A stretch of DNA of 64,000 bases from assembly GCA_905478855.1 (NCBI GenBank), contig CAJQKF010000039.1, positions 4,934 through 68,933 of the forward strand. The letters run 5' to 3'. Positions 2,833 through 45,075 of the stretch are shown piece by piece. Origin of the DNA: an uncultured Gammaproteobacteria bacterium (GTDB lineage: Bacteria; Pseudomonadota; Gammaproteobacteria; Arenicellales; CAJQKF01). Under the pieces are notes generated by a model. It had not been told where the DNA came from. It searched no databases and saw nothing but the letters and a program-made list of their open reading frames with translations. A program made the translations under genes and the position numbers. The first letter of the stretch is position 1, and every line of letters begins with the position of its first letter.

Positions 2833-2873
2833 AATATTCAACTTAGATATCGTAAATTAAAATGTATTTCTTC

Positions 2874-2900
2874 CGAACCTTAACTGCTAAATAAGGTTCG
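2874..2900 (+). terminator. Stem-loop downstream of the hydrolase gene (9-bp perfect stem, no U-tract)
   Basis: CGAACCTTA-actgctaaa-TAAGGTTCG lies 42 nt after the stop at 2832. No T-run follows, so terminator function is uncertain. Confidence 0.3.
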
Positions 2901-3618
2901 TATGTAGGATAACAGGAAACAATCGGCAGAGCCGGATGAGCAAACTATCGAAGGAATTTTGTCTAAACAAGAGTTAGTACTAACCATAAACTTTATCGGT
3001 AAATATCCCTATCTGTATGACCATTCAGCGATTCGGTATTCTTAATGGGCTTTATATAAAACGGTTGACATAGATGATGGAGTGTTTGCGACTGCAAAGG
3101 TGGTTTTTAATTTCAGCGTATCTAGAAGTTACAAAAGTGTTGGCTTTGAAACTCAGATGCAGCCCCTTGTTGGGTATGCTTCGTTATTTCATTAATCATG
3201 TTATGTAGAAAGGTTGAAAATAGGTGGCAGTTAATCTTAAGATATATCTGGCTGACACTGAGGAGGAGCTCTACAAGTACTTAGTTGATTTGGCGAAAAG
3301 TGAGGTCAGATGTGTTCTTAAGTGAGTCGATCGTTGTATACTTACTGGTATCGGTTGAAAGCGTTATTTCCTTATTCTGCGGATATACGTTAAAGGATTT
3401 TCATCGCTAACGGAGTAGCGTCATCCAAAAGCGAAAGCTCCGTTCAACCTAATTATTCAGATAATAAAGTCGTTTACTTGCCTGCGGTTCTTAAATAACA
3501 TAATGTTTTTGTTATCTGTATCCAATCTCTCAGAGTGAAGTAATTTACACTGCAGCGCTAGTTTCACTCAATAATGTTCTACTCGATATAAAACGGTAGT
3601 GATTAATCAGCAATCAGT

Positions 3619-4962
3619 ATGCTAAGTCTCCATAAGTTCCTGTTGCGCTTAGATAATCAATTCGGATCGGCAAAAACTAATTTTTTAGTGAATGGACGTA
3701 AGGAACTTGCTAACATTCTTTGGCTTTATTCCAGCCGAGTATTTAAATTATTTGTCGGAGCAATAGTTGGTGTTTGGCTCGCGCGTTACTTAGGTCCTGA
3801 ATCTTACGGCCTCTTAAACTATGTTGTTGCTTTGGTAGGACTATTCTTATCATTTTCCTCACTAGGGTTAAAACCCATTGTGATTCAGAACCTTGTAAAA
3901 GACCCTGAATCAAAAGAAAAAACAATTGGCACTGCAACTCTTTTATTGTTTTTGGGAGCCATAATTGCATATTCTGCGCTATTGGTTTTGGTATTTTATC
4001 TGCATTCTGACAATGTATTTGAGCGACAGATTATCTGTGTTTTTGGTTTAATCATCTTTTTTCGTGTAAGTGATACTTGCCGATTCTGGTTTGAAGCTCA
4101 GCTGCAGTCAAAGAGAACAGTTATTACCGAAGGAATTGCATTCACTATTGTTTCGGTGCTGAAAGTAATATTTATACTCTCGGAGTCTACGTTAATATAT
4201 TTCGTTTTTCTTATTTTAGCGGAATCTGTTCTTGCTGCAATCCTAATAGTTCGAGTTTTTATAAAACAAAAAAATCAATTTGGAACCTTAAACGTCTCGT
4301 TCCCAATTGCAAAGTCGCTTATTGATAGATCATGGCCGTTGATTATATGGGTGCTTTCTGCAAGTGCGTTTAATCGAATTGATCAAATAATGATTGGTCA
4401 AATACTAGGGCAAACGCAACTAGGCTATTACAGTGCAGCTGTTTTGATTTCAGAAATGTGGTATTTCGTGGCACTTGCTACGACTGCATCTTTAATGCCA
4501 GCATTTCACAGGCTTTACGAACGTTCGGAAAAAGAATTTGATCTCAAGTTGCAAGTTTTATTTCGAGTAATGGTTATAATTTCGTTGCCTATAACCCTTT
4601 TAGTCGTGATATTTAGCGATTGGATAATATTAACAATATTTGGTGAAGCGTTTAATCTTTCAGCATCTGTGCTATCGATTCACGCACTCGCATCTGTTTT
4701 TGTTTTTTTAGGTCAAGCATCTTTCTGCTGGTTTATTGTAAAAAATAAGCAAAAGCTGGTAAGCGTCATGACTCTGATGGGTCTGATTCTAAATATTATG
4801 CTCAATGTTCTATTTATACCCGAGTACGGTATTTACGGTGCCGCCTGGGCGACGTTTCTTTCCAGAGTATTTGTAGCTCTTCTGGGAAATTTATTTTTTA
4901 GAGAAACACGAATCCTCTTCAAAATGATGATAAAAAGTCTTTTAGTTTTTGGTCGATCATAA
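3619..4962 (+). CDS. wzx: Oligosaccharide/polysaccharide flippase (Wzx, PST family)
   Basis: 447 aa and highly hydrophobic, with a multi-TM pattern. The N-terminal region resembles polysaccharide biosynthesis/flippase proteins. It sits next to GT genes. Confidence 0.75.
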   Translation: MLSLHKFLLRLDNQFGSAKTNFLVNGRKELANILWLYSSRVFKLFVGAIVGVWLARYLGPESYGLLNYVVALVGLFLSFSSLGLKPIVIQNLVKDPESKEKTIGTATLLLFLGAIIAYSALLVLVFYLHSDNVFERQIICVFGLIIFFRVSDTCRFWFEAQLQSKRTVITEGIAFTIVSVLKVIFILSESTLIYFVFLILAESVLAAILIVRVFIKQKNQFGTLNVSFPIAKSLIDRSWPLIIWVLSASAFNRIDQIMIGQILGQTQLGYYSAAVLISEMWYFVALATTASLMPAFHRLYERSEKEFDLKLQVLFRVMVIISLPITLLVVIFSDWIILTIFGEAFNLSASVLSIHALASVFVFLGQASFCWFIVKNKQKLVSVMTLMGLILNIMLNVLFIPEYGIYGAAWATFLSRVFVALLGNLFFRETRILFKMMIKSLLVFGRS

Positions 4963-4977
4963 TTTGGGAATATTCTT

Positions 4978-5637
4978 CTAATCTGTCGTTTGGCTTATTG
5001 TGTTTGAAAAAAAACAACTGACTCCTGCAGAGCCAATCACAATCATTACAAGAAGCCGATATGCGCCCGAGTATTCATTACCATAAGTTAAAAATATTAT
5101 TTCATGACTCCCACGTTTTGATAGAAGAGTTGTGAAAAGAAGTTCGAATAATGCTAGTTGTAAAAGTAGTTCAAGCTTGTTCATATCCTTACCTTGAGAC
5201 CGGCTAACTTCAAATGCGTCACAAATCATTGCGATTGTTTCTTGCGCTCCTACTTGCTCGTAATATGTGTGATTCATCTCGTCCGGTATCAAGAGATCGG
5301 TAGGCTGTTTTACCCCAAGAGCACCTTGTAATATAGATTTCTGCTGTTCCAAACGCATGACACGCACTTCCAGACCCTGGATATGCTGTTGGTCTGCTGT
5401 AAATGCTTTTTTGATCGGGGTGATACTTCTGCGTTCGAGTTGAAGTTGTTGAACCCAGCATTTTAGAGCTGTTTCACCAATTCCCAGTGAACGGCTGGCT
5501 AGGCTTATCGAATAACTTGAGCAACTGCCAAACAGGCTGTCTCGTTTGTAAATTTGGTCTAAAATGACCGACGTTGTCTTTTCATTGAGCACCTCTCTGG
5601 TGGTAATTTTATCGCCTATTTTAGTGTCTGGTGTCAT
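4978..5637 (-). mobile_element. Degenerate, truncated IS3-family transposase remnant (OrfA plus the start of OrfB, fused in one frame)
   Basis: SLGIGETALKCWVQQLQLERR followed by a leucine-zipper-like segment (LEVRVMRLEQQKSILQGALG) matches IS3/IS911 OrfA. ICDAFEVSRSQ matches the start of OrfB. No DDE catalytic region is present. Confidence 0.6.
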
Positions 5638-5683
5638 TAGGCCATGACACTTATTGTTTACTAAACACCAGAGTAATATATCT

Positions 5684-6862
5684 TTATGAGAGTTTTTTAG
5701 AAAAACTGTTCTCGGTTTCGGGGTGTCCAGTCACTTGCGTTCTTTGCGGTGACGTTAAAAGGCTGTGCCACTTTGCCATAATCGGGGTTATCGAGTATTT
5801 GCGGTGGGCATTTTTCAGGGCGTATTCGGAATATTTTTTCCTTAGTGACGTATCGGTAATTAGTATGTGTAATGCTTCCGCAATCTGTCGTGTTGCGCCG
5901 ATCTCTACTAAAAAGCCACTTTTTTCGTTATCTATTATCTCCGCTGGGCCAACTGGGCAATTTGTAGATACCACAGGTAACCCTAGTGATTGCGCTTCTA
6001 TAATCGCGTTGTTCGCTCCCTCCAATTTGCTTGTTAATACGAGTGCTTTGGCGATCTTCATAATTTGATGTACATCGTTCCTAAAACCTAAAAAGTGGAC
6101 TCGATTTTGTATGCCTAGGTTTCTTATCTGGGTTTCCATCTTCGAGCGTAGTGGACCGGCACCACAAATCCATAACTGTGCATCAGTCTGCTGCAGAAGA
6201 ATTTCGAATGCGGCGATAAAAACATCCGGACATTTTACCGAATTAAGCCTCCCTACAAAAAGGACCACAGGAATTGTTTGATCAGGTAGCTGGGCATTAC
6301 AAGCGTTAGTCTCAGAGGCTTGCGTTTCGATACAAATTGCATTTTCAATAACTGAAACTCGACCTTTTGCAAACGGGTATATTTTTATAAAATTTAACGC
6401 AAGTGCATTTGAATTAGCGATGAATAAGTCAACCTTTTGCAGAAATAAGCGATGCAATATCCAGATAAGAAATCTATCGGTATACTCTGGAGGTGATCCC
6501 ACCCTAACAATCCATTTATTTGGTTGATGGTTGGAGAATAGCCTGACGATACCCATAAAAAGTCCGGTAGAAACTATATTACATAGGATAATGTCTGGTT
6601 TCTCTTGATCTATCCATTTTGCTAAGCGGCGTGCAGCAGAGTAAGTTTTCCACTTATTCGTTTTATTCAACAAAATAACTGGAATGTCAGTTGGTAGCGG
6701 ATAATCAATTATCTTCCTAAATAAAACGAGAGTTGGTTTAATCAGGCTTAGATCGATATTTTGTAAAAGGGTGCTCGCAAATCTCTCTGCACCACCCTGT
6801 GCTAGTGTGACACTGAGAATCGCAACTTTAGTTTTTCTGGATGTACGTGGTTCTTTCAACAC
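5684..6862 (-). CDS. Glycosyltransferase family 4 (GT-B, Glycos_transf_1)
   Basis: 392 aa. The C-terminal EGANNAIIEAQSLGLPVVSTNCPVGPAEII matches the GT4 E-x7-E region. Confidence 0.85.
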   Translation of the reverse strand: MLKEPRTSRKTKVAILSVTLAQGGAERFASTLLQNIDLSLIKPTLVLFRKIIDYPLPTDIPVILLNKTNKWKTYSAARRLAKWIDQEKPDIILCNIVSTGLFMGIVRLFSNHQPNKWIVRVGSPPEYTDRFLIWILHRLFLQKVDLFIANSNALALNFIKIYPFAKGRVSVIENAICIETQASETNACNAQLPDQTIPVVLFVGRLNSVKCPDVFIAAFEILLQQTDAQLWICGAGPLRSKMETQIRNLGIQNRVHFLGFRNDVHQIMKIAKALVLTSKLEGANNAIIEAQSLGLPVVSTNCPVGPAEIIDNEKSGFLVEIGATRQIAEALHILITDTSLRKKYSEYALKNAHRKYSITPIMAKWHSLLTSPQRTQVTGHPETENSFSKKLS

Positions 6863-7253
6863 TAGAATTTCATACCTGAAACAATACTACGGTTGCGTCA
6901 AAGTTTAACTTTGCTTTCTAGGAAGTCTCGGACAAAGTCTTTACACATGGGGACCATTCCTATATTCAATAAACTATATCACATGCGAATCTATATTAGC
7001 TTAGAGGGCTTTTGGCACTATTGCTGAATCGCCTTGTAAAAATAATTTTCTAGTCTAGATCTTTGAACTGGTTTTTTAGACGGAATTAAGAAAAATAATG
7101 TTGTCTTACTGTTTGATAGCGCGTGCCTTAAGGTTCCATAGATGATGGTTTTAACAGATGATGCCGCAATAATTTAGAACCTCAAAAAATACTATGTTGC
7201 ACCAATGGTTGCAGATTATCAGCTGAAATCTTCAGTTAACACCACTATACTTC

Positions 7254-8351
7254 ATGCAATCACAATACTTAATGGTATGCATGCGTATTCTTGTTATTGC
7301 CGGCATGATTGATGCCAAGTTGACCTCGAAGATTTTACCTCTACAATCAATTTCTGAAGTTAACGAAATAGATCTAGTGCGCAGAGTTCATTATCAAGGA
7401 GAAAAAATAAACTGTCATACTCCACCAACTCTATTTCTTAAGTTTCTTCCTTTAGCGGAACTATGGCGCTTAGGAACACTTATGTTCCTAGCAATCTTTA
7501 AACGTCCTCAGGTCATTATAGCATTTGGCACGGTTCCGCACGGAGTATACGCTTGGTTGATTGGCAAGCTTACCAAGACCCCAGTTATTCAACATGTCAT
7601 GGGGAAAAATGACCTTCGTCTTACTTTTCCTGGGCAAATCGGTCGTGGGCTAACACTTCATGCCGTCCGTCACTCAAAAGCTATTGCAGTACGGGGCACG
7701 CAAATGGCTAGCTGGCTCACCCAGCAGGGGATCCCGTCTGAGCGGCTATTTTCGCCCCAGAATATTCATAACTTTGATCTCTTCTGTCCTGATGACATTA
7801 GGAAGCCGGAGTTCGACTTGATCTACGTAGGTTTACTTTCACCTTACAAGCGAGTTGATCTATTGCTTAATGCGTTTGCACAAAGTAGCGAGGTAATCCC
7901 TAACCTGACGCTACTTATTGTGGGCGATGGGTCTGAACGAACCAAGCTTGAAAAGTTAGCAGAAGCCTTGAAAGTTAGAGAGCAAGTCTGCTTTGCAGGT
8001 AAACAGTCTATAAGCCAATTGCCTAAGTTTTACCAAAACGCTAAGGTTTTCATCATGACATCTCAGGGTGATGGATTGCCAATGGCAATGATTGAAGCCA
8101 TGAGTTGTGGACTACCCGCTATTGTCCCAAATGATGCTGACTTCTGTGACGTGGCTAACCCAAAGAATGCACTCATAATTCGAAGTCATACTTCTGATGC
8201 CTTTTCGCAAGGAATTGTTAGTTTATTCTTGGATGAGCAAAAATTTCAGTCTCTCAAACATGCAACCCAACAATTACGGCAAGAGAACGAGATTTTTTAT
8301 TCTGTTAAATATCAAACTGCGCTATGGAGAAAATGGGTGCTGAAAAATTAG
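7254..8351 (+). CDS. Glycosyltransferase family 4. The more likely start is the ATG at 7281 (MRILVIAG)
   Basis: GDGLPMAMIEAMSCGLPAIVPN is a GT4 motif. An MRILVI-type N-terminus is typical of the family. Confidence 0.85.
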   Translation: MQSQYLMVCMRILVIAGMIDAKLTSKILPLQSISEVNEIDLVRRVHYQGEKINCHTPPTLFLKFLPLAELWRLGTLMFLAIFKRPQVIIAFGTVPHGVYAWLIGKLTKTPVIQHVMGKNDLRLTFPGQIGRGLTLHAVRHSKAIAVRGTQMASWLTQQGIPSERLFSPQNIHNFDLFCPDDIRKPEFDLIYVGLLSPYKRVDLLLNAFAQSSEVIPNLTLLIVGDGSERTKLEKLAEALKVREQVCFAGKQSISQLPKFYQNAKVFIMTSQGDGLPMAMIEAMSCGLPAIVPNDADFCDVANPKNALIIRSHTSDAFSQGIVSLFLDEQKFQSLKHATQQLRQENEIFYSVKYQTALWRKWVLKN

Positions 8352-9134
8352 CTGAAGGTGGATGATTGGCTTAAAAAATCTGTTTTTTCAAGCCCGAATT
8401 CAGGTCGAATTTGTAAAAATCGGTTAATTCTTCGGTGGGATATATTAAAAATTTATAAGAAGAAAACTTAATTTTCCCCATATGTCTATTCGTTATTATT
8501 GACTGGTTTAATTTTCCACTGAAGTAGTGAGCGATTCTAAAGATATTCAACTATTGATTGCCAACCATTTTTATGGTGAATCAATAAGGGACTTGGATTA
8601 AACCAGTAAGTGCAACGTTTGGATTGATACTTAAGAACACCTGATTAGGCGTTTTTATATAAAGGTATTTTAGGCTCGATTGTTTAATCGAGTCATAGCA
8701 GAATTAACTTCTTTCTGAGTGATCGTTGTAGTGTGATAAACGATACGGGGTTCATTTTTTCTTATCGACGTTCACCAGTCAGATACTGGCTTTTTTAGGT
8801 CTATAACCCATCAAATCACGGTTATGCTTTATTTCTCTGTTATTGAATCCACGTTTATATTGAATTTAGTTTTATTTATGAAAAAGTGTAAGTTAATTGT
8901 GTATATCTCATCTGCGTTACTCAACCAACAGTCGGCAAAAAATGGTCTATATTTGTTCACTAGTGACTTTTTTCATGGAAATTCAATTTTTTATCACTGA
9001 CGTTTAAAATTATGGTTTTATCACTTAGTCGACTGGGCCAATCTGCGGAAAAACCTTGAACATTTTGATCTGGGTTGATTCATGTCAAAATTTTGCAATA
9101 CATCCTGAACTAGAATAGAGTATCGGCCGGAGTG

Positions 9135-9163
9135 TTACATGTGGCATGTTTGCTGCTTATAAT
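9135..9163 (+). promoter_or_regulatory. Candidate sigma70 promoter for ugpB
   Basis: TTACAT-N17-TATAAT ends about 55 nt upstream of the ugpB ATG. A GGAG Shine-Dalgarno sits at 9205-9208. Confidence 0.35.
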
Positions 9164-9217
9164 GCTGGACTAAAAAACTAAAGAAAAAATTCCTGCTACA
9201 TAATTGGAGATATATTA

Positions 9218-10519
9218 ATGAAACTTTTGAATACAATTTTAGCTGTGGCCCTTTCGGGTTTTGCGGCATCTACAATGGCGGCTACGGAGGTGCAGTGGTG
9301 GCATGCCATGGGCGGTGTTAACGGCGAGCGAGTAAACAAGATCGCGGATGACTTTAACGCGTCCCAAGCGGATTACAAGATAGTACCCAGTTATAAAGGT
9401 AACTATACAGAAACCATGACTGCTGCAATCGCCGCATTTCGTGCGAAAGAGCAGCCACATATTGTGCAAGTATTTGAAGTGGGTACTGCGACTATGATGG
9501 CGGCCAAAGGTGCTGTGTACCCTGTTGAGCAAGTTATGAAAGATGCTGGTGAGCCGTTCGATAAGTCAATTTTTCTGCCAGCAGTGATTAGTTATTACCA
9601 AACTTCTGAAGGCGAATTATTGTCAATGCCTTTTAACAGTTCTACACCGGTTCTTTGGTATAACAACGATGCGTTTAAGAAGGCAGGCGTTGAGAGTCCA
9701 CCCAAAACGTGGGACGACATGAAGGATGCATCGGAAAAATTGGTTGCCGCGGGTTATAAATGCGGATTTTCGTTTGGTTGGCAGTCTTGGGTAATGATTG
9801 AAAACTACAGCTCTTGGCATGATCTGGCTGTAGGCACTAAAGAGAACGGTTTTACCGGTACAGATACCAACTTTACCTTTAACAATGATCATGTAAAAGC
9901 GCGTATTGGCAGTATTGCTGATTGGTCAAAAGACAATCTGTTTAAGTATGGTGGTCGACGTGGGGATAGCCTCTCAATGTATACCACTGGTGAGTGCGGT
10001 ATGTGGATGAACTCATCTGCTTATTACGGTTCTGTGAAGAAGCAGGCAGAGTTTGACTTCGGTCAAACCATGTTACCAGTTGATACGGATGTGAGAGCAG
10101 AAGCTCAAAACTCAATTATCGGTGGTGCGACACTTTGGGTGCTCAGAGGCGGCGAAGATAGCGAATATAAAGGCGTAGCTAAGTTTATGACCTATCTATC
10201 TTCCCCTGAGGTACAGGCGTGGTGGCATCAGGAAACTGGTTATGTGCCAATTACCACTCCAGCGTACGAACTTTCTAAGACTCAGGGTTTTTATGATGCA
10301 AATCCAGGCACGGATACGGCGATTAAACAACTTAGCCTGAATACACCAACGGCTAATTCTCGCGGCATTCGATTCGGAAATTTCGTGCAAATTCGTGATG
10401 TAATCAACGAAGAAATGGAGGCTATCTGGAACGGCAGTAAAACAGCTGCCCAAGGTCTGGATGACGCAGCTGAGCGTGGCGATACTCTATTGCGTAAATT
10501 CGACCGTGCTAATAAATAA
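9218..10519 (+). CDS. ugpB: sn-glycerol-3-phosphate ABC transporter substrate-binding protein
   Basis: 433 aa with a signal peptide. The start of the mature protein (EVQWWHAMGG) and the overall pattern are typical of UgpB. ugpAEC follow. Confidence 0.9.
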   Translation: MKLLNTILAVALSGFAASTMAATEVQWWHAMGGVNGERVNKIADDFNASQADYKIVPSYKGNYTETMTAAIAAFRAKEQPHIVQVFEVGTATMMAAKGAVYPVEQVMKDAGEPFDKSIFLPAVISYYQTSEGELLSMPFNSSTPVLWYNNDAFKKAGVESPPKTWDDMKDASEKLVAAGYKCGFSFGWQSWVMIENYSSWHDLAVGTKENGFTGTDTNFTFNNDHVKARIGSIADWSKDNLFKYGGRRGDSLSMYTTGECGMWMNSSAYYGSVKKQAEFDFGQTMLPVDTDVRAEAQNSIIGGATLWVLRGGEDSEYKGVAKFMTYLSSPEVQAWWHQETGYVPITTPAYELSKTQGFYDANPGTDTAIKQLSLNTPTANSRGIRFGNFVQIRDVINEEMEAIWNGSKTAAQGLDDAAERGDTLLRKFDRANK

Positions 10520-33521: not shown

Positions 33522-34403
33522 GTGAAAATAATGAATATTAAGGCCTTAGTTGAAACCTATTTACACTCCTGGAATGTGCAGGATGTAGACGCGATTATTG
33601 CGTTGTTCTCGGAAGACGGGAAATATACTGATCCAAACTGTGCAGATGGACTATCAGGGGCGGCTTTGGCGGGTTACATCAATGGGTTGTATTCCGTATT
33701 TCCGGATCTTCACTTTGAAACCATACGTTTACTATCTGTAGATGAAAAAACTATGGTTGCCGAGTGGGTTATGCGCGGTACGAATAGCGGTTCACTCAAA
33801 GGATTACCGCCTACCGGCAAAGCTATTGCGCTCGATGGCATTGATGTATTTGATGTGGAGGACGGTCGAATCAAATCCGTTAAAGGATACTTCAATGGTG
33901 GCACTATGATGGAACAACTGGGTTTGCAGATAGACGTGCAACTGAAAAGCCTGGGTCCATTCTTTTTTGGAACTTCTGTTTACACCAATACACAAAGTAA
34001 GGCTTGTCCAAAAGTCTTTGCGATAACACAAATTCGTATAAAATCGGAAGAAGAACGCACGCAGTTACGTGACTTAACGAGAAATATGTTGCTGGAAATA
34101 TCCCAGGCACCAGGTTATATCGCCACAGTCACCTCACTTGCTAATAATATCGGCACCACCTTAACCGCGTGGGAAGACATGCAAGCTGCTCAGGCAGCCG
34201 TATCGGGTCCCACGCATAAAGAAGCGATGGCTGCAGCGTTTGCAAAGAATGGTCTCGGGGTAAGCGCATGGACGAGCTTCTGGAGCGAAGGGCAGATTAA
34301 TTCTCGCTGGCAGCGTTGCTTTACATGTGGTGCTTTCGCGAAATATACCCAGACGGGTAAATGTGGTTGTGGCGCTGAACTAGATGAGCCTGTGCATTTT
34401 TAG
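33522..34403 (+). CDS. Three-part protein: SnoaL-like/ester cyclase (NTF2 fold), an ABM-like domain and a C-terminal Cys4 zinc ribbon. An alternative start is the ATG at 33531
   Basis: The N-terminal part (LVETYLHSWNVQDVDAIIALFSEDGKYTDP...GLPPTGK...DGRI) is SnoaL-like. The middle part resembles a dimeric alpha-beta barrel. The C-terminus has CFTCG...CGCG. Confidence 0.55.
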   Translation: MKIMNIKALVETYLHSWNVQDVDAIIALFSEDGKYTDPNCADGLSGAALAGYINGLYSVFPDLHFETIRLLSVDEKTMVAEWVMRGTNSGSLKGLPPTGKAIALDGIDVFDVEDGRIKSVKGYFNGGTMMEQLGLQIDVQLKSLGPFFFGTSVYTNTQSKACPKVFAITQIRIKSEEERTQLRDLTRNMLLEISQAPGYIATVTSLANNIGTTLTAWEDMQAAQAAVSGPTHKEAMAAAFAKNGLGVSAWTSFWSEGQINSRWQRCFTCGAFAKYTQTGKCGCGAELDEPVHF

Positions 34404-35166: not shown

Positions 35167-36084
35167 TTAGTCCTTATAGAATTTTCTAGGTGTGAGCATG
35201 TAACGGAAATCCTGCAAGAGTTCTTTTCGGATCCGGTGGGTGGAAATTTTTTTAAAGACCACTCGAGTACACAGCATTTTTTCAGTGAAAGATATTTTGC
35301 TCTTGAGGATCCCTCTAAGTAGCATAGTGATGTAAGTTAGTCTTAAATAACAATTTTTTTTCTTGTTTCTTGTGTCTATCCAAATGCCAGCAGCTTTTCT
35401 GTCTTTATATGTAGAAGTAGAATAATTGTTTTTGTGCCGTCGAAATCGAAAAATCGACTCATCTGATTGTATAAAGTGTCCTCGTAAAACAATTTCAGCC
35501 AATAGGGCCTGATCAGATGCTTGGAATGTTCCATGGAGTTGGGATCCAACTAATGCCGAACGCCGAAATAATCCAAAGAAATAGAGCCAAAGCATGCCAT
35601 TATTAACCGCAGTTTTGTAGCGAACTGAGGGCTGTTCCGATGCAAAGGACGTCTTGTGGACTAGAATGGTTCGTTTCGGCGTACCGTTGGCCGAGACAAT
35701 TTCTGGGTTGAAGCCACAAAGCACAGCCTTGGGGTTGTTATCCAGTAACGTAACTGTTTCTATCAGAAAGTCATCTCGAATCATGTCGTCGTGCGCAGCC
35801 CATTTAAAATACTCACCGCGAGACTTGTGAAAGCATATGTCATAATTTCGACCAGCGCCGAGGTTTTCCGAGTTTCTGAAGTAGTGTATACGACTATCGA
35901 TAGCTATGAAGTATGCACATATTTCAGCTGTGTTGTCAGTTGATGCGTTGTCAGAAATAATTAATTCAAAGTCGGTATAGGTTTGTGCAAGGATAAGCTG
36001 GATGGCTTCTGCAATATAGTTCTCACCGTTATAAACAGGTAATCCAATGCTGACTTTGGGTGATGGTTTAGGGGATGAATGCAA
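35167..36084 (-). CDS. Glycosyltransferase family 2
   Basis: It has VSIGLPVYNGENYIAEAI...ISDNASTDNT and a downstream DxD (AHDDM) typical of GT2. Confidence 0.85.
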   Translation of the reverse strand: MHSSPKPSPKVSIGLPVYNGENYIAEAIQLILAQTYTDFELIISDNASTDNTAEICAYFIAIDSRIHYFRNSENLGAGRNYDICFHKSRGEYFKWAAHDDMIRDDFLIETVTLLDNNPKAVLCGFNPEIVSANGTPKRTILVHKTSFASEQPSVRYKTAVNNGMLWLYFFGLFRRSALVGSQLHGTFQASDQALLAEIVLRGHFIQSDESIFRFRRHKNNYSTSTYKDRKAAGIWIDTRNKKKNCYLRLTYITMLLRGILKSKISFTEKMLCTRVVFKKISTHRIRKELLQDFRYMLTPRKFYKD

Positions 36085-36096
36085 ACTTTTTTTCTC

Positions 36097-37275
36097 CTAG
36101 TTAAGAGACAGAATTCTTGGTAGTGGAATATTCATAGACGAGATTTGATTTTGTATCTCAATTTCGTAAATAGGATTCATGATAATCAGTAAGCCTATAT
36201 TGTTATTGATAAGGTAATCCACGTTTACTACCTTATGACCCGTGCCAGGTAAAAAAGTATTATGTTTCCTAGGGTTGATGTCTATTACGATATCTATCCA
36301 GGTAGGTTGATTCAGAATATTTAAAAGTGATACGGCCTTGGATCCACCACCCCACAGTGCAATAGATTCGCCATTTTGTTTTGATTCAGAAATTATATTG
36401 TTCATAGCCTCTCGTTTTTGAATCAAATTAGCTCCCCATGTCGCTAATGGTTGAGACGGATAGTTTGGTCTATATGCTATGTCGTTATCAGCTTTGGTTG
36501 TTGGTTCTGCTAGTAGCCCTAAATATTGCCCTTGATATCGTTGACTGATTTCTATTACTTTAAACCCTGTGTGAGAAAACAGCTGGCGTAGTGAGTTTTC
36601 GGTAAAATATGAGCAATGCTCGTAATATATATCGTGAAAGGCTCCTAAATTAAAAATACGTTCTGCGTTCGGTACCTGAAAATACAGCTTTGTAGCGGAA
36701 TCTCCGATCGAGGTGCGAATATCTGCGATAAGCTCTGTAATACGAAATACATGTTCTAGAGTCATAATGCAGCATACGAGGTCTGCATTCTCAAGAGACT
36801 CATTAGAATCGAACATGGTTTTCTTTACTACAACGTTGGTGGGTAATGAAATTCGGATGGGATCGAATACAGGATCGTAGCCGAGTCCGCGGTTGTTTCC
36901 TAGTGAGCAAATTGCATTAAGAAACTCGCCCTTTCCGCATCCGATTTCGACAACGTACTTATTACGAATATCACAGGTGGATATGAGCTCCTCGGCCAGG
37001 TCAGATTGATATTTTTGGAAAGTGGATGAAAAACCTTGAGGTTCTTCGTAGCTGTCGTCATAGGTAACTAGATCAGGGTCAAAATGTTGATTATTAACAA
37101 ATCCACATTGCTCGCAGCCAAACAGTTCAATATCCCCCTCGGGATATGATAGCGCGTGGTTTCTGTTTTCAATTACTACTACGCTATTTACTGGTACAGA
37201 ATCTTGCTTGTAAAAGCTCTTTAAATTGCAACTTCGACAGCATGGACATGTAACTTGAAAGTGGGACTGAAGCAT
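36097..37275 (-). CDS. Class I SAM-dependent methyltransferase with an N-terminal zinc ribbon and a C-methyltransferase-like C-terminal domain (paralog 2)
   Basis: It has paired cysteine motifs (CPCCRSC...CEQCGF) and a SAM motif (VVEIGCGKGEF). Its architecture parallels the adjacent gene. Confidence 0.7.
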   Translation of the reverse strand: MLQSHFQVTCPCCRSCNLKSFYKQDSVPVNSVVVIENRNHALSYPEGDIELFGCEQCGFVNNQHFDPDLVTYDDSYEEPQGFSSTFQKYQSDLAEELISTCDIRNKYVVEIGCGKGEFLNAICSLGNNRGLGYDPVFDPIRISLPTNVVVKKTMFDSNESLENADLVCCIMTLEHVFRITELIADIRTSIGDSATKLYFQVPNAERIFNLGAFHDIYYEHCSYFTENSLRQLFSHTGFKVIEISQRYQGQYLGLLAEPTTKADNDIAYRPNYPSQPLATWGANLIQKREAMNNIISESKQNGESIALWGGGSKAVSLLNILNQPTWIDIVIDINPRKHNTFLPGTGHKVVNVDYLINNNIGLLIIMNPIYEIEIQNQISSMNIPLPRILSLN

Positions 37276-38514
37276 TTAGATCATCGAAACCTTAGGTAAA
37301 GGAACTATGAATTTTCCTCCGTGCTGACAGTACTTGCTTTGCTCGGTCAGAATTTCTTCTTTTAGGTTCCAGGGAAGCAATAAACAGGCATCTGGCTGGT
37401 TGCTGACTAACCGACTAGGATGAAAGATTGGAATCCGACTACCAGGGAGAAGCTTGTTATGCTTTTTTTTATTCTTGTCCACAACAAAGGAAATTTTTTC
37501 CCAATTCAAATCACAATAAGCGAGCAATGTCGTACCCTTTGCCGCCGCACCATAGGCTGCAACAGTCTGTCTCTTCATTGTGAATTTATCGATAAGTTTG
37601 CATAACTGCTCTTTTACCTTCTTGGAGTCTTCAGCAATTTGTCGATAGTATCGTTCGTTAATAATGCCCAACGTAGATTCCTGTTCTAGTAAATCGGTAA
37701 CTGATTTACCTATATCTCGCTTGCGGCTAACAACAACACGTATGGATCCTCCATGCGTCGAGAGCCGCTGAACATCATTGATAAAAAGACCATGTTGATC
37801 TAACAATGCCTTAACGGAGTGAACACTGAAATAGCAAAGATGTTGATGATAGACAGTATCAAACGCGCAGCCATCAATTAGGTCTATGACATAGGGAAAT
37901 TCAATGATCCAACTACCATTTTCATTAAGAATTGTTTTTACGCCATTTACGAAATCGTGTAGTTCGTGAACATGAGCAAGAACATTGTTAGAAATTACTA
38001 AGTCAGCCGATATACCTTCGGTTTGAAGTTTCTCAGCAAGCGTAGAATCAAAAAATTCTGTTCGTGTGTTAATTCCATTTTGGATTGCTATATCTGCACA
38101 TATTGATGACGGTTCAATACCAAGTACGGGTATGTTGTGTTTCACAAAGTTACGCAATAAGTAGCCGTCATTACTCGCGAGTTCAACAACTGTAGAGTTC
38201 GAGTCTAACTTAAATGTTTTAATTAAAGACTCTACGTTATCGCGGCAGTGATTAAGCCATGTCGAGGAAATTGAGGATAAGTAGGGATACTTTGCATTGA
38301 ACAACAGATTTGGATTTGCCGTTTCGTGTAGTTGAAGCAATAAACAATCGCTACACCATACTAAAGTAAGTGGTATTAATAACTCTTGTTCCTTTGGAAG
38401 TGTTGAGTCTATTAGAACATCCGCGATGGGCATATCACCATATTCTAGTATTGAATGCAGATTACCTTTCCCACATACACGACAGCTGTCAGAAACTGAA
38501 TAAGTTGTATTCAT
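37276..38514 (-). CDS. NDP-hexose C-methyltransferase-like enzyme (TylCIII-type: zinc ribbon, SAM methyltransferase domain, C-terminal domain)
   Basis: CRVCG...LGDMPIAD...CSDCLLLQL...LFNAKYPYLSSISSTW is the characteristic N-terminal pattern of sugar C-methyltransferases. Confidence 0.75.
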   Translation of the reverse strand: MNTTYSVSDSCRVCGKGNLHSILEYGDMPIADVLIDSTLPKEQELLIPLTLVWCSDCLLLQLHETANPNLLFNAKYPYLSSISSTWLNHCRDNVESLIKTFKLDSNSTVVELASNDGYLLRNFVKHNIPVLGIEPSSICADIAIQNGINTRTEFFDSTLAEKLQTEGISADLVISNNVLAHVHELHDFVNGVKTILNENGSWIIEFPYVIDLIDGCAFDTVYHQHLCYFSVHSVKALLDQHGLFINDVQRLSTHGGSIRVVVSRKRDIGKSVTDLLEQESTLGIINERYYRQIAEDSKKVKEQLCKLIDKFTMKRQTVAAYGAAAKGTTLLAYCDLNWEKISFVVDKNKKKHNKLLPGSRIPIFHPSRLVSNQPDACLLLPWNLKEEILTEQSKYCQHGGKFIVPLPKVSMI

Positions 38515-38518
38515 GAGT

Positions 38519-39553
38519 CTATGTGCTATTACCTAGTTGATATAGGTCGGTATCTAGTATTCCCGTTTGTATTAAATGGTGGACATGTTCGATACGTGAA
38601 TAACGGCTTCCCTCAAAACCATCTGTTGCGTCGGGCGTGCGCATAAGCTGTGTGTATAACTCAGATATACCGCTTTCAAGGGTCCACTTAGGGCGTTGAA
38701 GTGATTTCAAACGATTTATTTTTTCACTGGATACGCGATAATTTCGTTTGTCGGGTTGTGCATCATTTGCGAAGACTATCTCGGAGTCGGGTATAACTTT
38801 TCTTACCGTTTCGGCAATTTGAATGATTCGGTGATTGGCTTTTTCTCCGCCTGCGTTGAAGGCTTGATTGTGTATTTCAACCCGGGGTGATTCGAGAAGA
38901 TCAACATACATTGCTGCTAGATCACGTACATGAATTAATGGTCTCCAGGCGTTGCCGTCACTTTTCAGGAAAATCTTGTTAGTGCTGCACGCCCATGCAG
39001 TTAGATTATTTGCAACTAAGTCAAATCGAATTCTTGGGGATACCCCGTATACTGTGCCTGCTCTAATAAATGTTGGCGAAAAAATTGAGTCCGCCATTTT
39101 CATTAGTGCTATTTCAGAATCCAGTTTGGAGCGCCCATAGGGTGTTACCGGGTTGGACGGGGATTGTTCATCAAGTAAGTTCTCACCGGACGCGCCATAT
39201 ATGCTACACGATGATGCAAATAAAAATCTTTTTGTGCCGGATTTTTTTGCCAAGTTAGCAAGCAGGATAGTTGCCTCACAGTTAATTTCGTTGGTAAGTT
39301 GAGAACAATAGCTACCAAGTGGGTCATTGCTGAGGCCCGCAAGATGAATCACCGCTTCAAACCCAGCTACCATTGACGGAGTTATATTGCGAATATCTGT
39401 TTTGAAATCTTCCACATCGATCATTTCACCATGAAACTCACAGGCCTCAAAAAGCCCAGTATCGCAACCTATAACTTCATGTCCGCGTTTAATTAATTCT
39501 GGAACAAGAACTGATCCGATATAGCCTCGGTGTCCAGTAACTAGAACTCTCAT
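38519..39553 (-). CDS. Extended SDR, NAD-dependent sugar epimerase/dehydratase family
   Basis: It has VLVTGHRGYIGS and a catalytic S...YGRSK. The active site reads SSCSIYG rather than the TDE of 4,6-dehydratases, so it looks epimerase- or reductase-like. Confidence 0.8.
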   Translation of the reverse strand: MRVLVTGHRGYIGSVLVPELIKRGHEVIGCDTGLFEACEFHGEMIDVEDFKTDIRNITPSMVAGFEAVIHLAGLSNDPLGSYCSQLTNEINCEATILLANLAKKSGTKRFLFASSCSIYGASGENLLDEQSPSNPVTPYGRSKLDSEIALMKMADSIFSPTFIRAGTVYGVSPRIRFDLVANNLTAWACSTNKIFLKSDGNAWRPLIHVRDLAAMYVDLLESPRVEIHNQAFNAGGEKANHRIIQIAETVRKVIPDSEIVFANDAQPDKRNYRVSSEKINRLKSLQRPKWTLESGISELYTQLMRTPDATDGFEGSRYSRIEHVHHLIQTGILDTDLYQLGNST

Positions 39554-40263
39554 GCGTTTGCCCCTTGCTGCAGTGGCAGTAGTTCTTCCTTCCAGTGCTG
39601 ATTGAGTAGCTCTAAATCATTAATTGTATCTACACATTGCCAGTACCCTTTGTGTTTAAACGCAGATAGTTGATTGTTCTGCGCTAGGTGGCTTAACACA
39701 TCATGTTCAAACTCGGTGTCGTCGTCTCTGAGTAGTCTAAGTACCTCAGGTTGTAGAACGAAATAACCACCGTTGATCCATTGATCGTCTAAAAGGGGTT
39801 TTTCTTCAAATTTCGTAACCTTATCTCCAGAAATCGTTAAATGCCCAAAGCGAGATGGGGGGTTAACGGCTGTAAGTGTGGCTAATTTTCCATGATCGTT
39901 GTGGAATGCCAATAGACGATTTAGGTCAACGTCACAGAATCCATCTGTCCATGTCATTAAAAATGGAGAATCTTTTTCAAGCAGATGTGCAATTCTACGA
40001 AGCCGGCCACCGTTGGATGTATGTAATCCCGTATCTACAACGTCTATACGGCGATCAAGTGTACAGTCATTAAAATAGGATTGGATTTGTTCGCCGAGAT
40101 ATCCAGTTAGAACAATAAATTCATGGAAACCACAGCTACGATAATGTTGGATAATATGCGAGACAAGAGGGAGCCCGCCCACTTTCGCGAGTGCTTTTGG
40201 AGTGTTATTTGTTACTTCGCGCAGCCGAAGACCTTTCCCGCCTGCCATGATGACAACTTTCAC
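39550..40263 (-). CDS. rfbF: Glucose-1-phosphate cytidylyltransferase-like (RfbF family). The start is set at the GTG giving (M)KVVIMAGGKGLRL
   Basis: It is colinear with RfbF: MAGGKGLRL, GGRLRR, INGGYFVL and GYWQCVDT. The listed ORF start at 40344 adds 27 basic residues that no homolog I know carries. Confidence 0.8.
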   Translation of the reverse strand: MKVVIMAGGKGLRLREVTNNTPKALAKVGGLPLVSHIIQHYRSCGFHEFIVLTGYLGEQIQSYFNDCTLDRRIDVVDTGLHTSNGGRLRRIAHLLEKDSPFLMTWTDGFCDVDLNRLLAFHNDHGKLATLTAVNPPSRFGHLTISGDKVTKFEEKPLLDDQWINGGYFVLQPEVLRLLRDDDTEFEHDVLSHLAQNNQLSAFKHKGYWQCVDTINDLELLNQHWKEELLPLQQGANA

Positions 40264-40477
40264 TTGATTTATACGCTTGATAGTTTGGTGTAGTGAATTA
40301 CGTCTTTTTCGTTGACTACGGTTCGAGTATCCGAAAAATCGCAATCAAAATAGCCTGTATCCACAAGCTGTCTGTGCAGCTTTTTCCGTAAAAACCCTAT
40401 TGAATAGTATAGTCTATTCATGATTTAGTACGAAACCACATTAGGTTGTTAAATAGTGAATAATCGTTTAATTCAGA

Positions 40478-42340: not shown

Positions 42341-43255
42341 TTACTGTCCACCTAGAACATCGCCGACTGATAAACCTTGTCCGCTGGCATACTCAATTGC
42401 AGAAACTTTACCGCCATCGCCACGTACGCGCTTTATCTGAACTGCATTTTGTCCCGCTGCGATAGTTATTCCACTGTCATCGATTGCTAACACTTCGCCG
42501 GGCTGACCATTATCCTCGGAAAGGCATGAGTCATAAATTTTAAGTTCTGCGTCATTATGTGTTGTCCATGCCCCGGGCTGTGGGTTACCTGCGCGGATTA
42601 TGTTGTAAATTTTGCTTGCTGAATCACTCCAATTAATTTGGGCTTGTTTTTTCCCGAACCATGATTCATAAGATCCGTTATCTAAGTTTTGAACTATTTT
42701 AGGAGCGTTGCCTTGTTTAACTAACTCAAGAGACTCGAGCATAGCGTCAACCCCCATCGGGAATAGTTTTTTGAAATAGATGTCCGCCAGTGTCTCCTCC
42801 GAGCCGATCTCGCAGGTTTTCTGCATTAGAATGGGTCCTTCATCCAATCCGTTATCAGGCCAGAAAATGCTTAGGCCAGTTTTGGTTGCCCCCATCGCGA
42901 TAGGCCAATTAATCGATGATGGTCCTCTGTGCATAGGCAATAGTGAGGGGTGGTACTGAAACGAACCATGTTTTGGGGCGTTTATTACTGCCTCTGGTAC
43001 AAATAACAATACGTAAGCCATCATGCAAATGTCGGCGTTGAATGATTGCATTAGAGTTAAAGATTCTTCTGTCTTCCATGACGCAGGTTGATGCACGGGA
43101 ATGCCCGATTCAACCGCTAGTTCTTTAAGTGTATCTACAGGTCGACCTTCCTTATCTGGCGCAGTGCAGACAGCAACAACATTTTCACCTTGCTCTAGTA
43201 ATTTTTCCAATACTGCGCGACCAAAGGCTTGTTGGCCGTGAACAACAATTCTCAT
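42341..43255 (-). CDS. Formyltransferase with Fmt-like C-terminal domain, closest to the N-terminal hydrolase domain of 10-formyl-THF dehydrogenase
   Basis: 304 aa. MRIVVHGQQAFGRAVLEKL...VCTAPDK...YHPSLLPMHRGPSSINWPI...GLSIFWPDNGLDEGPILMQK is colinear with the FDH N-terminal domain as I recall it. Confidence 0.75.
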   Translation of the reverse strand: MRIVVHGQQAFGRAVLEKLLEQGENVVAVCTAPDKEGRPVDTLKELAVESGIPVHQPASWKTEESLTLMQSFNADICMMAYVLLFVPEAVINAPKHGSFQYHPSLLPMHRGPSSINWPIAMGATKTGLSIFWPDNGLDEGPILMQKTCEIGSEETLADIYFKKLFPMGVDAMLESLELVKQGNAPKIVQNLDNGSYESWFGKKQAQINWSDSASKIYNIIRAGNPQPGAWTTHNDAELKIYDSCLSEDNGQPGEVLAIDDSGITIAAGQNAVQIKRVRGDGGKVSAIEYASGQGLSVGDVLGGQ

Positions 43256-43338
43256 ATTTTGCTCCTATTGCAGGTTAATGAGTCGATCGATATTGAATGT
43301 AGAGTATTAATAATACGATCGATCTACACGTCATTACG

Positions 43339-45075
43339 TTATTTATACATAGTTTGGGCTTTAGTTCCTGGTGCATACTCGTCAGGGTCAACCCATACGT
43401 TCACAACGGCACATTTTCCTGTGCTAGCAATAGCTTCTCTTGCTCTTTGAAAGGCAGGTTGAATATCTTTAGCTTCGTGGACTTCTTCTCCGTACCCACC
43501 AATCATTTCGCCGAACTTGCCGAACGGAATGTCTCCAAGTTTATTACCCACATTACCGCGCTCCGCGCCATATTTTGCTACTTGTCCGTATCGAATTTGG
43601 TTCATGTGCGAATTATTTCCAACAACCGCCAGATAAGGTGCACCGAATCGTTGGGCTGTCTCCATGTCAAATGCTGTCATACCAAAAGAGCCGTCACCAT
43701 ACAGACACATAACTTCTTTGTCAGGGTGGGCTAGCTTGGCAGCCATTGAAAAGCCTGTGCCTACGCCGAGTGAACCCAATGCACCTGGATCCATCCATTG
43801 CCCGGGATTTCGTGGCCTAACGGCTTGTGCGGAAATGGTTACGATATCGCCGCCATCGCCAATATAAATGGTATTTTCACCCAGAAATTCGTTTATTTCG
43901 TAGGCCAATCTATAAGGGTGTATAGGGTTTTGATCGGTAGTAAAAATGGGCATAAGCTTTTCAAGCTTGGTTGCTTCAATGGCACGAAGCTCCTTCATCC
44001 AAGATTGTCTTGCGCTGCGAGCGCCATTATCACTGCGGCCGGATGCCGCTTGTTCTACAGCTGCTAGAATTGCACCAGGATCACCGGTCAAGCCCAAACT
44101 AATGTCTCGGTTTTTACCTACAGTCGAGTAGCTTTGGTCAATTTGAATGAGCGTTGCGTCTTTGGATATCCGTTTTCCATATCCCATTCGGAAATCAAAA
44201 GGTGTTCCTACGATAAGAATTACATCAGCATTTTTAAACGCGTCTCCTCGGGTGCGATCGAAATGGTGTGGATCACCCTGAGGTAACATGCCACGACTCG
44301 CACCATTCATATAGGCCGGAATGTCTAGTGAGCGGATAAAGCTAATTGCCGCGTTATGCCCTTGTGATGCCCATACTTGTTGTCCTAATAGTACGGCAGG
44401 ACGTTCAGCGCTTACTAAAATATCGGCGAGCTTTTCAATATCTGCTGGATCACCAATGGAGGCTACTGAGGATCGATAGGCGCCGGGTTTTGGAATGATT
44501 GCGCTGTCGACAGGTATTTCACGATCGAGTACATCCCGAGGAATCTCTAAGTAAGATGGCCCGTAGGCTCCATTGAAGCATTCGCGAGCCGCCATTGAAA
44601 CCATATCTGCAACACGTTCTGTAGAATAGACACCGGAGGCGAACTTAGTTATTGGGCCCATCATGTCGACGTGAGGCAAGTCTTGTAGTGACCCCATCTT
44701 ATGTTGTGTCAATGAGCTTTGCCCACCGATATGAAGAATTGGACTCTCCGAGCGGAACGCTGTCGCCACGCCGGTAACGGCGTTGGTGCAACCTGGCCCT
44801 GCTGTTGTTACCACGCAACCCAACTTTCCGGTTTGCCGCGCGTATCCATCTGCTGCATGAGCAGCCGTTTGTTCATGACGTACATCTACAATACGTATTC
44901 CTTCATCGATGCATCCGTCATAAATATCGATAATATGGCCACCACAGAGTGTGAAAATAGTATCGACACCCTCATTTTTTAGTGCCTTCGCGACTAGATG
45001 TCCTCCTGAAATAACATCACCACTTTTATCCTTTCTCGCTAGGGTATCTGAGGCCGTATCTGTTGGTTTGTTCAT
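43339..45075 (-). CDS. Thiamine-diphosphate-dependent enzyme of the acetolactate synthase / oxalyl-CoA decarboxylase / 2-hydroxyacyl-CoA lyase superfamily
   Basis: 578 aa with RHEQTAAHAADGYAR, TAGPGCTNAVTG and the TPP-binding motif GDGSFGMTAFDMETA...VVGNN. I cannot assign a subfamily by eye. Confidence 0.85.
   Translation of the reverse strand: MNKPTDTASDTLARKDKSGDVISGGHLVAKALKNEGVDTIFTLCGGHIIDIYDGCIDEGIRIVDVRHEQTAAHAADGYARQTGKLGCVVTTAGPGCTNAVTGVATAFRSESPILHIGGQSSLTQHKMGSLQDLPHVDMMGPITKFASGVYSTERVADMVSMAARECFNGAYGPSYLEIPRDVLDREIPVDSAIIPKPGAYRSSVASIGDPADIEKLADILVSAERPAVLLGQQVWASQGHNAAISFIRSLDIPAYMNGASRGMLPQGDPHHFDRTRGDAFKNADVILIVGTPFDFRMGYGKRISKDATLIQIDQSYSTVGKNRDISLGLTGDPGAILAAVEQAASGRSDNGARSARQSWMKELRAIEATKLEKLMPIFTTDQNPIHPYRLAYEINEFLGENTIYIGDGGDIVTISAQAVRPRNPGQWMDPGALGSLGVGTGFSMAAKLAHPDKEVMCLYGDGSFGMTAFDMETAQRFGAPYLAVVGNNSHMNQIRYGQVAKYGAERGNVGNKLGDIPFGKFGEMIGGYGEEVHEAKDIQPAFQRAREAIASTGKCAVVNVWVDPDEYAPGTKAQTMYK

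Follow-up and report, generated by a model that had tools for sequence, protein, structure and literature searches.

Textbook routes to branched-chain sugars begin with a 4,6-dehydratase, and known C-methyl sugars are therefore almost all 6-deoxy. The C3-methyltransferases TcaB9, KijD1, MtmC, and TylC3 act in antibiotic pathways on thymidine diphosphate (dTDP)-4-keto-2,6- or 6-deoxy sugars, are encoded in actinomycete secondary-metabolite clusters, and combine a Cys4 zinc domain, an S-adenosylmethionine (SAM) domain, and a C-terminal nucleotide-binding domain. The wider family includes 5-C-methyltransferases such as NovU, and to our knowledge all characterized TylC3-type enzymes act on 4-keto-6-deoxy sugars. 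Here we analyze a 64,000-nucleotide stretch of DNA from an uncultured Gammaproteobacteria bacterium (Arenicellales; contig CAJQKF010000039.1), referred to as the window, in which one locus encodes two methyltransferases of this architecture (MT1 and MT2) together with an RfbF-like sugar-1-phosphate nucleotidyltransferase (NT), an extended short-chain dehydrogenase/reductase (SDR), and a family 2 glycosyltransferase (GT2). The SDR lacks the acid/base pair of a 4,6-dehydratase and falls instead in the lineage of Cj1427, a nucleoside diphosphate (NDP)-sugar C4-dehydrogenase.

Two further described systems are close to this locus. The conventional loci for C-methylated cytidine diphosphate (CDP)-hexoses are exemplified by plasmid p1 of Desulfolutivibrio (rfbF-rfbG-rmlC-like-methyltransferase-acyltransferase-reductase) and by SMb21416-18 of Sinorhizobium meliloti, listed as ddhA, ddhB, and a 3-C-methyltransferase (PMC4053727). 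In these loci rfbF and rfbG are adjacent, and a true CDP-glucose 4,6-dehydratase is accompanied by a 3,5-epimerase, a separate reductase, and one TylC3-type methyltransferase. The window locus shares with them the RfbF-type first enzyme, and their C-methyltransferase is 42-45% identical to MT1; unlike them, it has no dehydratase, 3,5-epimerase, or reductase, and it carries two TylC3-type methyltransferases (three in most relatives).

The other system is Cj1427 of Campylobacter, which oxidizes C4 of guanosine diphosphate (GDP)-D-glycero-D-manno-heptose and releases the 4-keto sugar; NADH stays tightly bound to the enzyme, which alpha-ketoglutarate then recycles (PMC10680097). Cj1427 thus supplies a free 4-keto sugar nucleotide to downstream tailoring enzymes without removing O6.

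Gene content of the locus and kinship of its SDR

An open reading frame (ORF) check of the window found a five-ORF minus-strand array in the order NT, SDR, MT1, MT2, GT2 (Table 1), and Pfam and NCBIfam assignments agreed with the gene content listed in an earlier note on this DNA, which was made from the sequence alone (a cytidylyltransferase-like protein, an SDR, two methyltransferases, and a GT2). The genes are closely packed, with a 4-nt overlap between NT and SDR, a 4-nt gap between SDR and MT1, no gap between MT1 and MT2, and 12 nt between MT2 and GT2, a spacing that fits an operon.

Pfam places the SDR, which is of the extended type, in its Epimerase family. It scores far below the curated cutoffs of the dehydratase hidden Markov models (HMMs), with 26.8 bits against TIGR02622 (CDP-glucose 4,6-dehydratase; cutoff 278.45) and 44 bits against the dTDP-glucose dehydratase model (cutoff 365). 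Its best NCBIfam model is GalE, at 94 bits and well under the cutoff of 262, and reductase models reach only 36 (RmlD) and 37 bits (Fcl). Compared with an annotated RfbG by blastp, the SDR shows 22% identity (E 0.05); a tblastn search of the window with RfbG returned no match at 1e-3, and the 64-kb window encodes no second extended SDR. We aligned the active site with those of E. coli RmlB, Gmd, GalE, Fcl, and RmlD, Desulfolutivibrio RfbG, and Cj1427. Read from the catalytic Ser/Thr, the residues are T-D-E in RmlB, T-S-E in Gmd, S-D-K in RfbG, S-A-T in GalE, S-S-C in Fcl, T-N-S in Cj1427, and S115-C116-S117 in the window SDR. The acid/base pair of the dehydratases (Asp-Lys in RfbG, Asp-Glu in RmlB, Ser-Glu in Gmd) is missing from the SDR, and the Tyr-x3-Lys element (Y139-x3-K143) is intact. 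The triplet lies within SSCSIYG (residues 114-120), and none of SSCSxYG, Y139, and K143 varies among 32 homologs (~55% identity). Judged by these residues and scores, the SDR is not a 4,6-dehydratase, as the earlier note had suggested from the motif. We noted that the invariant Cys116, directly after the catalytic Ser, occupies the site of the acid Asp in RmlB and RfbG, which is an Asn in Cj1427.

What the earlier note had missed, in likening the SDR to an epimerase or reductase, is its kinship with a C4-dehydrogenase. The top PDB match is Cj1427 (6VO6; 7.6e-38, 134 bits; the identity of 6VO6 and 6VO8 as Cj1427 is taken from PDB titles), and the next entry scores 73 bits; blastp aligns the two proteins at 34% identity over 304 amino acids (aa; 8e-45). 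When an AlphaFold2 model of the SDR (predicted local distance difference test score, pLDDT, 90) was searched with Foldseek, ranks 1-6 were Cj1427 (E 9e-26; template modeling score, TM, 0.78/0.88), followed by TunA as the second-best fold match and then by many 4-epimerases. All of the other close structural neighbors (4-epimerases, TunA, decarboxylases, and dehydratases) begin with C4 oxidation on NAD+, and reductases score far lower. Cj1427 and the SDR also have in common a loop, G[IV]SPR[MI]R[LF]DL, which is absent from RmlB, Gmd, GalE, Fcl, and RfbG.

Like Cj1427, then, the SDR is an extended SDR with a Ser/Thr-Tyr-Lys triad, an NAD-type Asp after strand 2, and the SPRxRxDL loop, and it is without the dehydratase acid/base pair. 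The likeness does not extend to the active-site motif after strand 4, an invariant S-C-S in the SDR and T-N-S in Cj1427, and Cj1427 differs further in its GDP-heptose substrate and in feeding epimerases and reductases rather than methyltransferases. Re-oxidation of bound NADH requires alpha-ketoglutarate in Cj1427, a trait that the SDR may or may not share. An SDR of the Cj1427 type can give a keto group without a dehydratase, and it is therefore a candidate answer, inside the operon, to the paradox of sugar C-methyltransferases that have no dehydratase beside them.

MT1 matches the Pfam families Methyltransf_13, Methyltransf_23, and Methyltransf_14, all above cutoff, and its PDB matches, which span the whole protein, are MtmC (3.6e-73), TcaB9, and KijD1 (the latter two ~1e-62). 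MT2 matches Methyltransf_23 and part of Methyltransf_14 (41 bits; cutoff 23.5). Its zinc ribbon (Methyltransf_13) was not detected by Pfam; four cysteines (C10, C13, C54, and C57), invariant in its family, nevertheless line up with those of the KijD1 zinc site. By sequence MT2 resembles MtmC, TcaB9, and KijD1 weakly (~1e-12), and an AlphaFold2 model (pLDDT 92) matches the same three enzymes over three domains (TM 0.78-0.84; E ~1e-24 to 1e-27), the next fold matches covering the SAM domain only at TM <0.4. An alignment of 161 cassette methyltransferases with MtmC and KijD1 resolved three clades: MT1, which contains MtmC and KijD1 at 37-38% identity, and MT2a and MT2b, which share 36% identity between them and ~21% with MT1. 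The window MT2 sides with MT2a (37% versus 32% for MT2b). The four zinc cysteines are conserved throughout the three clades, as are the residues that correspond to Y76, H181, and H225 of TcaB9. At the positions mutated in TcaB9 PDB structures (Y76, H181, Y222, E224, and H225), MT1 has Y, H, Y, Q, H and MT2 has Y, H, Y, E, H, the E224 equivalent being E or Q across the MT1 clade. In MT2b (e.g., locus L093, 11195-12361), the Y222 equivalent is always Ile, and H181, E224, and H225 are kept.

Both window methyltransferases therefore look like competent sugar C-methyltransferases, judged from aligned residues and predicted folds, and the architecture earlier assigned to them holds, for MT1 on Pfam and PDB matches and for MT2 on the aligned cysteines and the full-length fold. 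Both enzymes keep the C-methyltransferase fold and catalytic set, and the earlier idea of two methylations on a nucleotide-activated hexose is a reasonable one. The description as tandem paralogs needs qualifying: the genes are adjacent and paralogous, and at 23% identity they do not stem from a recent tandem duplication; on this divergence MT1 and MT2 are ancient paralogs. Set against known C-methyltransferases, MT1 groups with MtmC and KijD1, and MT2 stands in a separate clade and resembles them at the level of fold. Both differ from the antibiotic-pathway enzymes in setting, with an RfbF-like partner and a cassette spread over many phyla, and MT2a and MT2b are only ~21% identical to the known enzymes.

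The NT belongs to Pfam NTP_transferase (1.2e-23). RfbF (1TZF, 2.3e-52) is by far its best solved match, it is 37% identical to an annotated RfbF, and its homolog in the Leisingera cassette is named rfbF by PGAP. The best NCBIfam family is TIGR02623, glucose-1-phosphate cytidylyltransferase, with 236.8 bits in two stretches; the curated cutoff of 300.25 is not reached, a shortfall that coincides with, and is explained by, the loss of a ~22-aa hairpin (RfbF residues ~72-95) that is kept in RfbF and in 71 of 72 cassette homologs. Its GGxGTRL signature reads GGKGLRL. The start of the gene is most likely the GTG at 40263, where the RfbF alignment begins and which gives the canonical N-terminus MKVVIMAGG, and not the TTG at 40344 chosen earlier. 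GT2 carries a GT-A domain (Pfam Glycos_transf_2, PF00535; 4.3e-29, 102 bits, cutoff 23.3).

Table 1. Positions of the five genes, of other features of the window, and of adhesin-type genes beside related cassettes
Feature	Position	Strand	Assignment	Role or remark
NT	39550..40263	-	RfbF-like sugar-1-phosphate nucleotidyltransferase	Probably glucose-1-phosphate cytidylyltransferase; longest ORF 39550-40344
SDR	38519..39553	-	Extended SDR, Cj1427 (NDP-sugar C4-dehydrogenase) lineage	Proposed: making the sugar keto group
MT1	37276..38514	-	NDP-hexose C-methyltransferase, TylC3/TcaB9/KijD1/MtmC type	
MT2	36097..37275	-	Divergent MT1 paralog (MT2a clade), same three-domain architecture	Proposed: second methylation
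GT2	35167..36084	-	Family 2 glycosyltransferase	Presumed transferase for the modified sugar
SnoaL-ABM protein	33522-34403		SnoaL-like domain fused to ABM monooxygenase domain	
Thiamine diphosphate (ThDP) enzyme and formyltransferase-like protein	42341-45075		Oxalyl-CoA decarboxylase-like; Formyl_trans_N/C	
Most AT-rich stretch	2001-10178			Minimum near 3901-9078
Adhesin-type genes, locus L007	17270-21056			
Adhesin-type genes, locus L009	17496-19017; 4034-6379			
Adhesin-type genes, locus L093	15042-21179			

Distribution and variants of the cassette

The SDR subfamily is large, with at least 7,989 relatives at E <=1e-20 among 8,000 candidates scored, and at least 589 loci in GTDB species genomes match two SDR-subfamily peptides. 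We compared the best 80 of these loci and counted genes in the 53 that have enough flanking sequence. The order NT-SDR-MT1-MT2a(-MT2b), often with GT2, recurs in ~90% of the 53 loci and in at least nine phyla, including Pseudomonadota, Chloroflexota, Cyanobacteria, Planctomycetota, Verrucomicrobiota, Fibrobacterota, Gemmatimonadota, Desulfobacterota, and Acidobacteriota. NT is present in 49, MT1 in 48, MT2a in 45, MT2b in 32, and GT2 in 23 of the 53, and the number of methyltransferases per locus is three in 31 and two in 13. The arrangement is thus no peculiarity of this genome; it is widespread, in several hundred species of many phyla and usually with three methyltransferases. The window copy is an ordinary, slightly reduced member of this large family; it is without MT2b, the third methyltransferase of most cassettes. 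All-against-all clustering of neighboring ORFs revealed no other conserved neighbor family; apparent families that traced to antisense shadow ORFs in high-GC loci were discarded as spurious. Within 10 kb, a true RfbG homolog (>=40% identity) occurs in one of the 80 loci and an RmlC-like gene in four. Cultured hosts include S. meliloti, Mesorhizobium, Leisingera, Parahaliea mediterranea, and Desulfosarcina variabilis.

In Leisingera aquaemixtae, SDR and MT1 form one 780-aa protein with no internal stop (WP_338092693.1; plasmid NZ_CP081054.1; L009 9001-11343), in which a Pro/Ala-rich linker runs into the zinc ribbon. The fusion is annotated on three L. aquaemixtae plasmids, and in L. caerulea the genes are separate. 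Such a fusion suggests the hand-over of an unstable intermediate. Other long SDR-MT ORFs, found in high-GC loci, proved to be upstream extensions in the MT1 frame, which leaves L. aquaemixtae as the only real fusion.

The surroundings of the cassette vary. In P. mediterranea the cassette forms part of a polysaccharide export locus, together with a GT2 of 305 aa and a Wzx-type flippase, and in a sister lineage (L092) MT1-MT2-GT2 are kept at 62-68% identity between different flanking genes. GT2 homologs at cassettes are 31-47% identical and often directly follow MT2a. MT2a and GT2 travel as an adjacent pair (window 35167-37275; L008 17484-19304; also L013, L026, L032, L018, and L092); in rhizobia (Sinorhizobium, Mesorhizobium, and Oricola) the pair is detached from NT-SDR-MT1-MT2b, inverted, and a few kb away. 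In three unrelated genomes, very large genes of the adhesin type (Ig-like, cadherin-like, or calcium-binding) adjoin the cassette (Table 1); the proximity could hint at a protein acceptor or could be coincidence.

S. meliloti carries both kinds of locus on pSymB, the conventional rfbF-rfbG-methyltransferase locus at ~1.35 Mb and the cassette at ~0.69 Mb (683-708 kb stretch of strain 1021, L008; SDR and MT1 at ~693-696 kb). We considered whether SMb21416-18 might itself be the cassette with a misannotated SDR; this was ruled out, since it is a separate, conventional locus. In strain RCAM1750 the conventional rfbF looks frameshifted. The true rfbG lies inside its own complete pathway, ~650 kb from the cassette. 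A genome with the cassette may thus have a true dehydratase at another site, and S. meliloti is a case of the dehydratase elsewhere that the earlier note had named as a sign of conventional chemistry.

A proposed route and its alternatives

Our preferred reading, which we put forward tentatively, is that the operon may encode a self-contained pathway whose product is a nucleotide-activated hexose with two C-methyl groups and an intact 6-hydroxyl. The RfbF-like NT would make a CDP-hexose, most likely CDP-glucose, and the SDR would oxidize C4 with NAD+ and stop there, giving a 4-keto sugar with O6 kept. MT1 would methylate the adjacent C3 through an enolate, as TcaB9, KijD1, and MtmC do, and MT2 would add a second methyl group, most likely at C5, the other carbon beside the keto group. 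The keto group might then be re-reduced by the SDR with its retained NADH, which would make the cycle redox-neutral, or by MT1 acting as a ketoreductase like MtmC, its best solved match, which is both a 3-C-methyltransferase and a 4-ketoreductase (PMC10269268). GT2 would transfer the sugar to a glycan or another acceptor. The presence of the cassette on plasmids and its different flanks in the sister lineage fit a unit that is able to work on its own, and a non-deoxy C-methyl hexose does exist in nature, namely 3-C-methyl-D-mannose in the O-antigen of Helicobacter pylori (PMC12961483).

Several points weigh against this route. The SDR is only 34% identical to Cj1427, whose motif is T-N-S rather than S-C-S and whose substrate is a GDP-heptose. 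The NT scores below the RfbF cutoff and is missing a conserved hairpin, so that CDP-glucose is not certain. The operon has no dedicated reductase, which makes the last step speculative, and for most cassettes the scheme is incomplete, three methyltransferases facing two carbons beside one keto group. Finally, the methyltransferases would have to accept something other than the 4-keto-6-deoxy sugars on which characterized TylC3-family enzymes act, and an rfbG might lie outside the 64 kb inspected, S. meliloti having one on the replicon that bears its cassette.

These last points lead to the most conventional alternative, in which CDP-4-keto-6-deoxyglucose comes from an unlinked CDP-glucose 4,6-dehydratase and is the substrate of MT1 and MT2, the SDR serving either as the 4-ketoreductase of the last step or as an epimerase. 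It would use the 4-keto-6-deoxy substrates known for characterized TylC3-type enzymes and given in PDB titles, and it would provide the reductase that the operon otherwise lacks; a true rfbG does lie ~650 kb from the cassette on pSymB, and of the genome studied here 64 kb were inspected. We nevertheless regard it as unlikely. In conventional loci rfbF and rfbG are adjacent and come with their own reductase and epimerase, only one of the 80 cassette loci has rfbG within 10 kb, and the rfbG of S. meliloti belongs to a complete separate pathway; the cassette brings an NT of its own and is mobile between replicons and genomic settings; and the SDR resembles NAD+-retaining, C4-oxidizing enzymes (Cj1427, 134 bits) rather than reductases such as RmlD (36 bits) and Fcl (37 bits). 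A dehydratase might instead be concealed in the SDR itself, if the invariant Cys116 served as the acid of a non-canonical 4,6-dehydratase, or of a 5,6-dehydratase like TunA, and yielded a deoxy or unsaturated keto sugar. Cys116 does stand where the Asp of RmlB and RfbG protonates the leaving 6-OH, and the 5,6-dehydratase TunA is the second-best fold match. Yet the base two residues after the catalytic Ser/Thr (Glu in RmlB and Gmd, Lys in RfbG) is replaced by Ser, identity to TunA is 20-21%, and all dehydratase HMMs score far under their cutoffs, all of which makes this the least probable of the alternatives and, in our judgment, very improbable.

The resemblance of the SDR to 4-epimerases would allow a different outcome, an O-methylated hexose, if the SDR were a plain epimerase (for example, a CDP-hexose 4-epimerase) and the methyltransferases acted on hydroxyls. 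GalE is the best NCBIfam model (94 bits), many fold neighbors are 4-epimerases, and the Ser-Tyr-Lys triad matches that of GalE; the His base could serve O-methylation as well, and a set of three methyltransferases finds targets more readily among hydroxyls than among carbons. The 94 bits, however, compare with a GalE cutoff of 262, and the SDR is clearly nearer to Cj1427. All three methyltransferase clades keep residues targeted in the TcaB9 C-methylation mutants (Y76, H181, H225, and E224, with E or Q in the MT1 clade), we know of no O-methyltransferase with this architecture, and the SDR-MT1 fusion, with the hand-over of an unstable intermediate that it suggests, also speaks against plain epimerization. 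We consider this outcome quite improbable.

To return to the self-contained route, each of its components belongs to a known enzyme class, and the combination appears to be uncharacterized in the searchable literature, full-text searches having turned up no study of such a cassette. The combination comprises the C4-dehydrogenase-type SDR in place of a dehydratase, the relay of two or three TylC3-type methyltransferases, and the lack of a dedicated epimerase or reductase. If the route is correct, a C4-dehydrogenase-type SDR with sugar C-methyltransferases would constitute a second entry into branched-sugar chemistry and would explain the origin of non-deoxy C-methyl hexoses such as 3-C-methyl-mannose. 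The most specific form of the proposal, an undescribed class of CDP-hexoses with a 6-OH and two C-methyl branches (three in most relatives), made by a redox-neutral SDR cycle with a methyltransferase relay in which the SDR re-reduces the product, is possible but doubtful. Were it true, several hundred species of at least nine phyla would display an uncharacterized sugar. The occurrence of the cassette in rhizobia, roseobacters, cyanobacteria, Chloroflexota, Planctomycetota, and others points to an unrecognized surface sugar in many environmental and symbiotic bacteria, and four soluble proteins and commercially available substrates would suffice for a direct test of the hypothesis.

Flanks and composition of the window

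The cassette is flanked by unrelated housekeeping and efflux genes, which encode an RND pump, a SnoaL/ABM protein, a GFA protein, AceK, a formyltransferase-like protein, and a ThDP enzyme. The locus had been described as visibly more AT-rich than its flanks, a claim that turned out to be weak: its GC content is 40.9%, that of the window as a whole is 43.6%, 13% of segments of equal length have a value as low or lower, and the neighboring housekeeping gene aceK has 41.1%. The most AT-rich stretch of the window lies elsewhere, with a GC of 0.39-0.40, below that of the cassette locus (Table 1). The argument for horizontal exchange from composition is correspondingly weak; plasmid-borne copies and the changed flanks in the sister lineage do suggest mobility. 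The window contains no tRNA genes and thus no tRNA-linked island boundary. Scans for promoters and terminators gave sites fewer than or no more than in shuffled sequence and were not used.

Proteins of the window organism are otherwise found only on marine-metagenome contigs, and its SDR is at most 56% identical to that of any GTDB species representative. Some metagenome contigs from this organism have aceK, MT1, and SDR split into two ORFs (L001 7290-9076; L003 3064-4795 and 6768-8006), and on a 110-kb contig the SDR occurs as fragments of 158 and 130 aa. The splits reflect either misassembly or decay of the genes in a subset of the population.

Two neighbors of the cassette have domain arrangements of their own. 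The ThDP enzyme (578 aa, oxalyl-CoA decarboxylase-like architecture) adjoins a 304-aa Formyl_trans_N/C protein on the same strand with a gap of 83 nt, and the SnoaL-ABM fusion protein ends in a Cys-rich C-terminal tail (CFTCGAF...GKCGCG).

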